From Parasporobacterium sp. (GTDB lineage: Bacteria > Bacillota > Clostridia > Lachnospirales > Lachnospiraceae): a DNA stretch of 64,000 nucleotides. The position numbers were made by a program, and so were the translations under genes. Of this stretch, positions 13,277 through 20,733 are shown in pieces; the stretch's first letter is position 1; the number at the start of each line of letters is the position of its first letter. The DNA lies in the NCBI GenBank assembly GCA_017510065.1, contig JAFWOB010000184.1, positions 4,671 to 68,670 on the forward strand. The letters run 5' to 3'. The notes under the pieces are model-generated. The model was not told where the DNA came from and did not search any database. It was given only the letters and a program-made list of their open reading frames with translations.

Positions 13277-13327
13277 AAAAAAACAGCCCGTCCGAAGTTT
13301 CTTTACACTTACAGACGGGCTATTTTA
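13277..13327. terminator. bidirectional intrinsic terminator (tyrA on +, orphan transcript on -)
   Basis: AGCCCGTC(13285-92)...GACGGGCT(13314-21), extendable to about 14 bp. It is flanked by AAAAAAA on the + side (= U7 on the minus strand) and followed by ATTTT on the + strand. Confidence 0.8.
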
Positions 13328-13534
13328 CAATTTCCTGAAGTTTCACTATATAACCTCTCTTCCTATTGAATTGTCCTTTGGAAATCTTCTGAATTCCTTT
13401 CTTCTATTCAGTGATTTCCGAGATTTACATTTTCATTGGACCATACCTCTTTTTTCTGCCCGGTTCAAGATCAGAATTTGTTTTTGTCAATTAGCTTAAT
13501 CAGCTTGGATTATTCTTCTTGTTCCGTTCTTTAT
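13277..13534 (-). ncRNA. candidate orphan small RNA (~255 nt), family unknown
   Basis: Bounded by a consensus promoter (13541-13569) and the U7 terminator. No ORF longer than about 20 codons has a credible SD. Purine-rich with many GGA motifs. Contains a 13-bp hairpin GGAAAUC-A-CUGAAU / AUUCAG-AA-GAUUUCC with AAGGA in its loop (about 13375-13420). Confidence 0.45.
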
Positions 13535-13540
13535 GTCCAT

Positions 13541-13569
13541 ATTATACAAATGAAGCCTTATAGTGTCAA
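13541..13569 (-). promoter_or_regulatory. consensus sigma-A promoter with no downstream gene
   Basis: Minus strand: TTGACA (13569-64), exactly 17 nt, TATAAT (13546-41). Confidence 0.65.
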
Positions 13570-13618: not shown

Positions 13619-14119
13619 TTAGTTCGAAGTTCCGCAATCTGCCGATCCTTCCGAATACAGCATCTGAAGTCCGTGCTCCAGGCTGTCCAGCACAGCCAGA
13701 AGATTTTCCCTGGCTGCCTTTTCACTTCCCGGCAGGTTGATGATCAGGGACCTTCCCCTGATCCCGGCGGCACTTCTGGAAAGGCATCCCCGCGGCGTGA
13801 TCTTCATACTTTCTACCCGCATCAGCTCGGGAATCCCGGGCGTTTCCCGCTCGATCACCGCTTTTGTTGCTTCCGGCGTGACATCTCTCGGGGAAAAGCC
13901 GGTTCCCCCGGTGGTCAGCACCAGTGAGACCTTTCGTTCATCACAGCACCTGATCAGTTCGTCTTTGATCTGTTCCATCTCATCCGGAATGATGGCAGTA
14001 CAGACCACCTGGTAGCCGTGTTCGCTCACCAGTTTTTCAAGCATCGGCCCGCTGGTATCCACTCTCTCTCCTCTGGATCCTTTGTCACTGACTGTTATCA
14101 CTGCCGCTGTATAGTTCAT
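13619..14119 (-). CDS. mogA: MogA/MoaB-family molybdenum cofactor biosynthesis protein
   Basis: Start moved to ATG 14119 (MNYTAAVITVSDKGSRGERVDTSGP...). Contains TTGGTGFSPRDVTPEA. About 166 aa. Confidence 0.8.
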   Translation of the reverse strand: MNYTAAVITVSDKGSRGERVDTSGPMLEKLVSEHGYQVVCTAIIPDEMEQIKDELIRCCDERKVSLVLTTGGTGFSPRDVTPEATKAVIERETPGIPELMRVESMKITPRGCLSRSAAGIRGRSLIINLPGSEKAARENLLAVLDSLEHGLQMLYSEGSADCGTSN

Positions 14120-20522: not shown

Positions 20523-20699
20523 AATTGGGACAAAGAACATGCGGACATGGTCTCTGGCTGCTGTGTATGCCGTCTCCTTTTCAAATAGGAAGGTCATCTC
20601 GTTTCCAACATGGCCCCGGGCAGACGAGCATATGCTGCGTTTCTCTCTGCCGGATCCTGGCCCATAGCGATATGCCTTAGGGAACAGGATCTCGAAGAC
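20523..20699 (-). promoter_or_regulatory. structured 5' leader of the mod/moa operon; candidate Moco riboswitch
   Basis: About 245-nt leader between the promoter (20706-33) and modA. AGACGG-C-AUAC in the leader can pair with the terminator 5' arm GUAU-CCGUCU (antiterminator). The context (molybdate uptake plus Moco synthesis) fits the Moco RNA motif. I could not verify the consensus from memory. Confidence 0.45.
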
Positions 20700-20705
20700 A
20701 ATTTC

Positions 20706-20733
20706 ATTATAACAGCCTTTCCTGCTTTTTCAA
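20706..20733 (-). promoter_or_regulatory. promoter of the modA operon
   Basis: Minus strand: TTGAAA (20733-28), 16 nt, TGt-TATAAT (20711-06). Confidence 0.6.

Follow-up and report, generated by a model that had tools for sequence, protein, structure and literature searches.

In a 64,000-nt stretch of Parasporobacterium sp. DNA (GenBank assembly GCA_017510065.1, contig JAFWOB010000184.1, positions 4,671 to 68,670 of the forward strand; referred to as the window), the minus strand of the gap between the genes mogA and tyrA carries a transcription unit of ∼258 nt, bounded by a promoter at 13569-13541 and a hairpin with seven U residues at 13321-13277. We propose that this unit is a small stand-alone gene and that its RNA works by being translated, a reading to which we assign a probability of roughly 55%. 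Very probably the short open reading frames (ORFs) of the unit are translated and translation is central to its function. The parts of this reading that the data show are the promoter, the terminator, the conservation throughout a family of related units, substitutions of the coding type, the short distance between the last stop codon and the terminator stem, the complementarity of the Shine-Dalgarno (SD) regions to the 3' tail of the 16S rRNA, and the lack of a conserved neighbour. An initial annotation of the locus had described the unit as an orphan candidate small RNA (sRNA) with no meaningful ORF, reminiscent of CsrA/RsmA-type sponges. The unit is indeed self-contained; it is conserved and does not act as a leader for a neighbouring gene. 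What is conserved within it is a peptide ORF rather than structure, the outcome which the initial annotation had itself named as speaking against its candidate.

The transcription unit and its mini-ORFs

The promoter agrees with the sigma-A consensus at 12 of 12 positions and, as had been noticed from the sequence, points into the gap between the stop of a gene for a MogA-type protein (PF00994; stop at 13619) and the stop of the convergent prephenate dehydrogenase gene tyrA (13253). Transcription of the unit is predicted to start near 13534. There are 18 such perfect promoters in the 3.47-Mb genome, with roughly one expected by chance according to our own arithmetic, and since the other 17 are located upstream of tRNAs, rpsL, rplM, rpmF, HU and pckA, the promoter of the unit belongs to the top expression class. 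Promoters with 10-12 of 12 matches precede nearly all homologous units. At the other end, the GC-rich hairpin assigned to termination by the initial annotation is present with ∼13 pairs and one bulged U (−27.5 kcal/mol for the terminator segment), followed by U7; a simple terminator scan passed over it solely because its loop is longer than 8 nt. On the plus strand the same hairpin is trailed by AUUUUAC, and therefore it also serves tyrA, less well, as had been supposed. The fold of the whole RNA has a z-score of −4.06, mainly owed to the terminator. The G+C content of the unit is 32-38%, compared to 50-58% in the flanks. The genome of the window contains one copy of the unit, and no further copies or mini-ORF arrays were found elsewhere in it.

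Between promoter and terminator, the units of the family carry modules of three kinds (A, B, and C). Long ORFs are absent, in agreement with the initial annotation, but two SD-led mini-ORFs had escaped it, MKM* at 13436-13425 in module A and MKLQEIVK* at 13346-13320 in module C. Nearly all SD-led frames in the family have no more than 8 codons. Module C is always the last module and consists of a box AUAGAAAGAGAGG, a 7-nt spacer, GTG, and 6-8 codons; the frame in the window reads GTG AAA CTT CAG GAA ATT GTA AAA TAG. The pattern used to collect 71 of the loci fixed only the box upstream of GTG and left the frame free, and all 71 have an open frame of 6-8 sense codons with an in-frame stop (TAA, TAG or TGA). 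Their peptides follow M-K/R-L-(L/Q/K/R)-(E/D/N)-(I/Y/F)-H, with M-K/R-L-x-E-I-H* as the family consensus. Seven sense codons were counted in 89 of 106 instances and eight are present in the window, while the last residue is His in 85 and Asn in 2 of the 106, and Lys in the window. The stop of ORF C is found −6 to +3 nt from the first base of the terminator stem (122 instances), and in the window the TAG overlaps the first stem bases.

In diverged members of the family the SD changes from GAGAGGUU to GAAGGUG and the start from GTG to ATG, yet MKLxEIH is kept. Among the matches of a covariance model, which left the frame unconstrained, one subfamily reads GAAGGUGUAGACA AUG AAA UUA CUG GAA AUU CAU UAA, with ATG instead of GTG as start and TTA instead of CTT for Leu3, and the peptide is still MKLLEIH. 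Leu3 is encoded by CTT, CTA, CTG, CTC or TTA, residues other than Leu never occur at codon 3 in the unconstrained sets, and both CAT and CAC are in use at codon 7. Since start, Leu3 and stop codons switch while the peptide stays, ORF C is, as judged from these substitutions, conserved at the coding level and would represent a translated frame whose residues matter. The idea that ORF C mimics the translation start of a real gene was dismissed, because no gene start of note in the genome of the window combines a comparable SD with a MKLxE/D-I region. A hairpin of SD and start (AGGUU/AACUU) was also rejected; it shows no compensatory changes and is absent in the ATG/TTA subfamily.

Module A follows the same grammar in most units of the family, namely an SD, RRWCC, and ATG, with a stop after one or two more codons. 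Its products vary (MK*, MA*, MR*, MGK*, MKM*), and one relative has ATG-TAA. The 22 nt before the start are predicted to pair with the 16-nt tail of the 16S rRNA (GGAUCACCUCCUUUCU) at −16.0 kcal/mol in three blocks, AGAAA, GAGGU, and GGUCC, compared to a median of −8.3 kcal/mol over 690 starts of long ORFs in the same genome, only 4% of which pair as strongly. The corresponding value for module C is −13.1 kcal/mol, which falls in the top 13% of starts. In two carrier genomes with an assembled 16S gene, the 16S 3' end is ...GGAUCACCUCCUU. As a general structure enclosing module A, a GUCC...GGAC hairpin was discarded; it exists with 5-7 bp in some subfamilies, but the best stems have 4.4 bp in the overall mean, against 4.3 bp in shuffles. 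A longer hidden ORF was rejected as well: a 21-codon TTG frame (13490-13425, minus strand; peptide MTKTNSDLEPGRKKRYGPMKM) runs into MKM and is open in the three closest species, but it lacks an SD, and its upstream extension is not conserved in the family. In the loci L136-L142 the penultimate module is a start-less copy of module A, with CAGGAGGUACGGUCC, 10 nt, and UAA; here the start codon is swapped for ACA, AAA, ACC or AUC, and the SD box and UAA are kept.

A third conserved mini-ORF type, module B, encodes M-K/R-G-R-(D/G/A)-P* in some relatives and is absent from the window. It was observed in L100 (Eubacterium ramulus ATCC 29099), L027, L037, L042, L053, L063, L064, and L139-L142, always with a Pro-stop. 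Pro-stop is a slow-termination context and resembles TnaC (...HRP*) and the RAGP/RAPG arrest motifs.

Table 1. Positions of the elements of the unit and its surroundings in the window
Feature	Position	Strand	Description
AT-rich palindrome TTGTA-N10-TACAA	13597..13616	-	upstream of the -35 box; read from sequence
Sigma-A promoter	13541..13569	-	TTGACA 13569-13564, 17-nt spacer, TATAAT 13546-13541; 12/12 match
5' domain of RNA	13453..13534	-	small AGCU/AGCU hairpin 13505-13493 (fold prediction); clade-specific
Module A	13425..13452	-	SD AGAGG 13450-13446, GGUCC box 13442-13438, ATG AAA ATG TAA 13436-13425 = MKM*
13-bp hairpin, loop AGAAGAAAGGA	13380..13419	-	predicted by folding; variable spacer outside the conserved core
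Module C	13320..13367	-	AAUAGGAAGAGAGG box with SD 13360-13354, 7-nt spacer, frame 13346-13320
Intrinsic terminator	13277..13321	-	stem 13321-13285, then G + U7 (13283-13277); common to convergent tyrA

Conservation and distribution of the unit

In comparison to the congener G001 the unit is far better kept than its neighbours, with a DNA identity of 98.9% for ORF C and the terminator, 92.9% for module A, and 92.7% for the 5' domain, versus 76% for tyrA and 71% for mogA. Among the relatives, module C is 98.9-100% and module A 92.9-100% identical. The 5' domain is 92.7-96.3% identical in G001 and G027 and partly common to G011 and G020. The initial annotation had drawn attention to a 13-bp hairpin that presents AAGGA in its loop; the hairpin is present at 13419-13380, but it is not conserved, being the sole segment of the unit without a match in G001, and it has an 11-nt loop insertion in G027.

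A BLAST search of 60 relatives found the 3' ∼100 nt of the unit in about half of the genomes of the genus. Two DNA patterns gave 55 and 70 loci in a collection of species-representative genomes, nearly all of them in metagenome-assembled genomes (MAGs) of Lachnospiraceae from human gut and ruminants. Altogether more than 130 related loci were identified, many of them from MAGs; the number of sequences should not be read as a number of independent events. The unit is also present in cultured bacteria, among them Eubacterium ramulus ATCC 29099, Faecalicatena contorta, Dorea acetigenes, and a Bilifractor isolate; the peptides of the first three are MKLRFNR, MKLQEYH, and MKLLEFH, respectively. When a covariance model was built for the 3' module, it matched in 41 of the 400 genera sampled within the family (1-3 copies in each matching genome), and outside the family it gave only 3 significant matches among 400 genomes of the class. 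Two of these 3 matches, located in other families of Clostridia, show the same layout with the terminal frame MKLDFKSEQK*. The contigs of L044, L071, L110, L046, and L053 carry the taxon labels Treponemataceae, Bacteroidaceae, Bulleidia or Anaerovoracaceae, which is implausible, and they are probably mis-binned Lachnospiraceae contigs or wrongly labelled. Some genomes contain 2-3 copies of the unit, at times close together around one gene. In L055 two units in opposite orientation are 1.4 kb apart with a nitroreductase-like ORF in between, and on contig C30 of G339 two units are separated by 2.6 kb.

The homologues reveal a covarying helix only in the terminator. In the stem of 43 family members compensatory changes affect 11 of 12 pairs, and 97.9% of the cells are paired. 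While the stems covary freely, the loop sequence (U)GUAAAGAAA (13309-13299 in the window) returns in distant members; other subfamilies have the loops GAUGACGAGAAAGUC or GAGAGGAAAAAGAAUC. Judged by this recurrence, the terminator loop may be functional. The widespread loop motif UGUAAAG corresponds to TTTACA on the opposite strand, and the window has an antisense promoter-like site TTTACA-18-TACAAT (10/12) at 13302-13331 of the plus strand, inside the terminator loop and ORF C. The -10 box of this site relies on the clade-specific ATTGTA, and the site could be due to chance in AT-rich DNA.

A scan with the covariance models of known RNA families agreed with the impression that the unit belongs to none of them: Rfam 15 gave no match at the window locus, with chance-level matches only (up to E = 10), and no match at the unit in 15 homologous loci. 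The unit also had no match in plasmid and phage collections, and an origin from a mobile element was rejected on this basis. Literature searches aimed at the peptide sequences and at clostridial mini-ORF RNAs yielded nothing relevant and no paper describing the unit.

Proposed mode of action and alternative explanations

We propose that the near-maximal sigma-A promoter would give rise to an abundant short transcript, and that module A near its 5' end would dock a ribosome through its strong SD and its additional pairing with the 16S tail, and would release it after three codons. By analogy to the 5' stabiliser SD elements of Firmicutes, this docking may keep the RNA covered and stable. At the 3' end, the SD-led frame of 8 codons (7 in most relatives), whose peptide appears to be under selection, would be translated repeatedly, and judging from the size of the ribosome footprint the hairpin behind the stop would melt in each round and re-form afterwards. 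ORFs of 2-8 codons undergo reiterative translation without ribosome dissociation (PMC6495379), and we assume reiterative translation here because the frames fall into this range and the hairpin is directly behind the stop. The product would be many copies of a tiny, probably N-formylated peptide from a ribosome-bound stable RNA. The resemblance to the mccA transcript discussed below lies in the joint occurrence of the promoter, the docking site, a short selected frame, and a terminator abutting the stop. Among these steps, we infer the level of transcription, actual translation, stabilisation by ribosomes, reiterative translation, and the free peptide as output.

That the free peptide is the effector is conceivable, although we would put it somewhat below an even chance, and it is rather unlikely that the role of the peptide is confined to the inside of the ribosome or that ribosome occupancy itself is the output. 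The most specific version, for which mccA is the model, is an orphan 'peptide factory', in which the RNA would keep ribosomes tethered and yield large amounts of a free, N-formylated peptide of seven or eight residues (fM-K/R-L-x-E-I-H; fMKLQEIVK here) as effector, and this is less probable still. Such a peptide may have a regulatory role within the cell, it may be secreted or sensed by the host as a formyl peptide, or it may act on its own ribosome. Macrolide-resistance peptides of 4-6 residues act on the ribosome that made them.

Several observations speak against a gene that works by being translated. An 8-residue peptide has no partner gene, and no linked modifying or export gene was found in the neighbourhoods of the units. 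Nucleotide conservation around ORF C exceeds the need of the peptide alone; since CTT, GAA, and ATT are nearly invariant within the main subfamily, some constraint at the RNA level seems to exist beside the coding constraint, and RUGAA and UUCAU are able to pair weakly. The clade of the window has ...EIVK* for the consensus ...EIH*, so that the C-terminal His is not essential. Furthermore, the SDs of the window copy are 5-nt cores only (GAGGU). Finally, one subfamily keeps GGAGGUACGGUCC and TAA at a fixed distance in its penultimate module and has lost the start codon. As these start-less copies of module A are conserved, ribosome docking as such, beyond the translation of a mini-ORF, is apparently selected, and in module A selection may act on docking instead of translation.

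The same start-less copies are accommodated by an RNA that merely engages ribosomes, in which the mini-ORFs serve to capture, retain and recycle ribosomes or to use up initiator tRNA, release factors or Pth, and which would serve as a buffer or sensor of translation capacity. The peptide sequences would then be of importance within the ribosome only, for instance in pacing termination. In agreement with this, the pairing predicted between module A and the entire 16S tail is unusually strong, the frames do not exceed 8 codons, and the MKGR(D/G/A)P* frames of relatives end with a Pro-stop, a context known for slow termination. We nevertheless regard this explanation as doubtful. The two sites in the RNA of the window are too few for titration unless the RNA is extremely abundant, pacing would not seem to require amino acid conservation as specific as that seen in ORF C, and no output pathway is visible.

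Mini-ORFs would be incidental in a trans-acting riboregulator or RNA sponge, whose purine-rich, SD-like boxes pair with C/U-rich partners. The RNA is purine-rich and single-copy, it has its own promoter and terminator, and in the boxes before the start codons conservation extends further than a minimal SD. Starts, in-frame stops, and residues are, however, kept through nucleotide changes, covariation is confined to the terminator helix, the hairpin at module A is not general, and no target candidates emerged, which makes a riboregulator improbable.

The close spacing of stop and stem invites a further explanation in cis. By stalling where ORF C ends, a ribosome would cover the 5' arm of the terminator and cause readthrough into whatever sequence follows, here antisense tyrA. 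Judging from the footprint size, a terminating ribosome and the hairpin would be mutually exclusive, and in the window the 5' arm has a candidate antiterminator pairing (−11.3 kcal/mol), which is weak and clade-specific. Short leader peptides of erm and msrD reportedly act via a ribosome-controlled terminator. However, no conserved antiterminator was found across the family, and the immediate and 4-kb neighbourhoods of 120 units have no gene family in common beyond local synteny. The downstream gene is convergent in ∼57% of the units and then shares the hairpin as bidirectional terminator, and co-directional downstream genes start 60-980 nt away. Since different loci have unrelated neighbours and convergent downstream genes are this frequent, the unit is not a cis-regulator, and a ribosome-controlled terminator of this kind is quite improbable. 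A classical leader-peptide attenuator, which needs a regulated gene downstream on the same strand, was rejected on similar grounds, as the gene downstream of the unit is convergent at this locus too.

The last alternative is the CsrA/RsmA-type sponge suggested by the initial annotation, in which GGA motifs in loops would sequester a CsrA-like regulator. Its count of at least seven GGA motifs is right, one of them being located in the loop of the 13-bp hairpin, and a purine-rich small RNA with GGA motifs is indeed what CsrB and RsmZ have in common with the unit. However, seven motifs are not above chance (5.0 ± 1.8 in shuffles, p = 0.2), the AAGGA-loop hairpin is the least conserved part of the unit and not even kept in the nearest species, and conserved GGA hairpins are missing. 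Moreover, the profile PF02599 did not detect csrA in the genome of the window, in contrast to the positive controls E. coli, B. subtilis, and T. maritima. The gene was likewise absent from 23 of the 25 carrier genomes, among them all 16 that belong to the genus. A CsrA sponge is therefore very improbable.

Described mini-ORF systems and flanking features of the locus

The closest described system for the proposed translated gene would be the short mccA transcript of microcin C in E. coli and H. pylori. In this RNA a strong SD precedes an ORF of 7 codons next to a terminator, and the transcript is very abundant, ribosome-bound, and exceptionally stable (PMC4231749). The unit shares with it the strong SD, the 7-codon ORF class within the range of 2-8 codons, and the intrinsic terminator directly 3' of the frame. 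By analogy, its RNA may likewise be abundant, ribosome-bound, and stable, and its peptide would probably keep the N-formyl group. Unlike mccA, the unit has no mccB-E genes or any other conserved neighbour, contains an additional 5' mini-ORF module, and is chromosomal, occurring in ∼10% of the genera of one family. Termination in mccA is brought about by the ribosome, which removes an attenuating structure located upstream, and no such structure is conserved in the present family. MccB requires a C-terminal Asn in the MccA peptide (PMC6495379), while the peptide of the unit ends with His, or Lys in the window. No mccB (E1/ThiF-like adenylyltransferase) is present beside the unit at the locus or recurs over 120 units; unlinked homologues were not searched. 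Since both the C-terminal Asn and the neighbouring mccB are missing, the unit is not a member of the MccA family.

With minigenes and start-stop sites (phage lambda bar, E. coli start-stops) and with CreT toxins (PMC8501985), module A shares the sequence of SD, ATG, 1-2 codons, and stop. In contrast to these, the unit has a consensus promoter that appears constitutive, is linked to neither an antitoxin nor CRISPR, and always combines module A with a conserved 7-codon frame. Different codons follow the ATG (Lys, Ala, Arg, Gly, Glu), and therefore no single tRNA is targeted by module A. In CreT-type RNA toxins a mini-ORF contains repeated rare codons and is repressed by an adjacent CRISPR-like creA guide with Cas; such a toxin was rejected for the codon variation and for the lack of a conserved neighbour.

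STAB-SD elements, such as the 5' stabilisers of cry3A and the ermC leader, are strong SD-like sites that protect a downstream protein-coding message. Module A resembles them as a strong SD-like site that is close to the 5' end and does not begin a real gene, and relatives have start-less copies of it; the only cargo of the unit is, however, a frame of 8 codons.

Genes of 3-8 codons escape annotation, and here the amino acids of one of them are preserved in many genera of a family that is dominant in gut and rumen. If a peptide is the product, it would be a new kind of very small gene product of commensals, probably N-formylated and thus of the type sensed by host receptors. If instead ribosome engagement is what counts, the unit would be a natural minimal example of an RNA built on ribosome docking and re-initiation. 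As an orphan 'peptide factory' it would rank among the shortest conserved genes known, without dedicated modification enzymes. Both the peptide and the ribosome-engagement explanation are testable in the cultured carriers, and 'ORF-less' sRNA candidates in Firmicutes need to be checked for conserved mini-frames.

Two further features belong to the surroundings of the unit. The segment 13576-13618 with the palindrome upstream of the promoter is 92.5-100% identical in relatives, compared to 71-89% for the flanking genes there. Elsewhere in the genus, other species have this palindrome placed over the spacer and the -10 box of the promoter (12 of 110 units). Judging from its position, it may be an operator, an UP-like element, or a weak terminator of mogA; as an operator for some regulator, it may imply that the unit is not constitutive. 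The mod/moa operon, whose last gene is mogA, is itself preceded by a known element, a Moco/tungsten-cofactor riboswitch (RF01055, 64.6 bits) at 20558-20709 on the minus strand.

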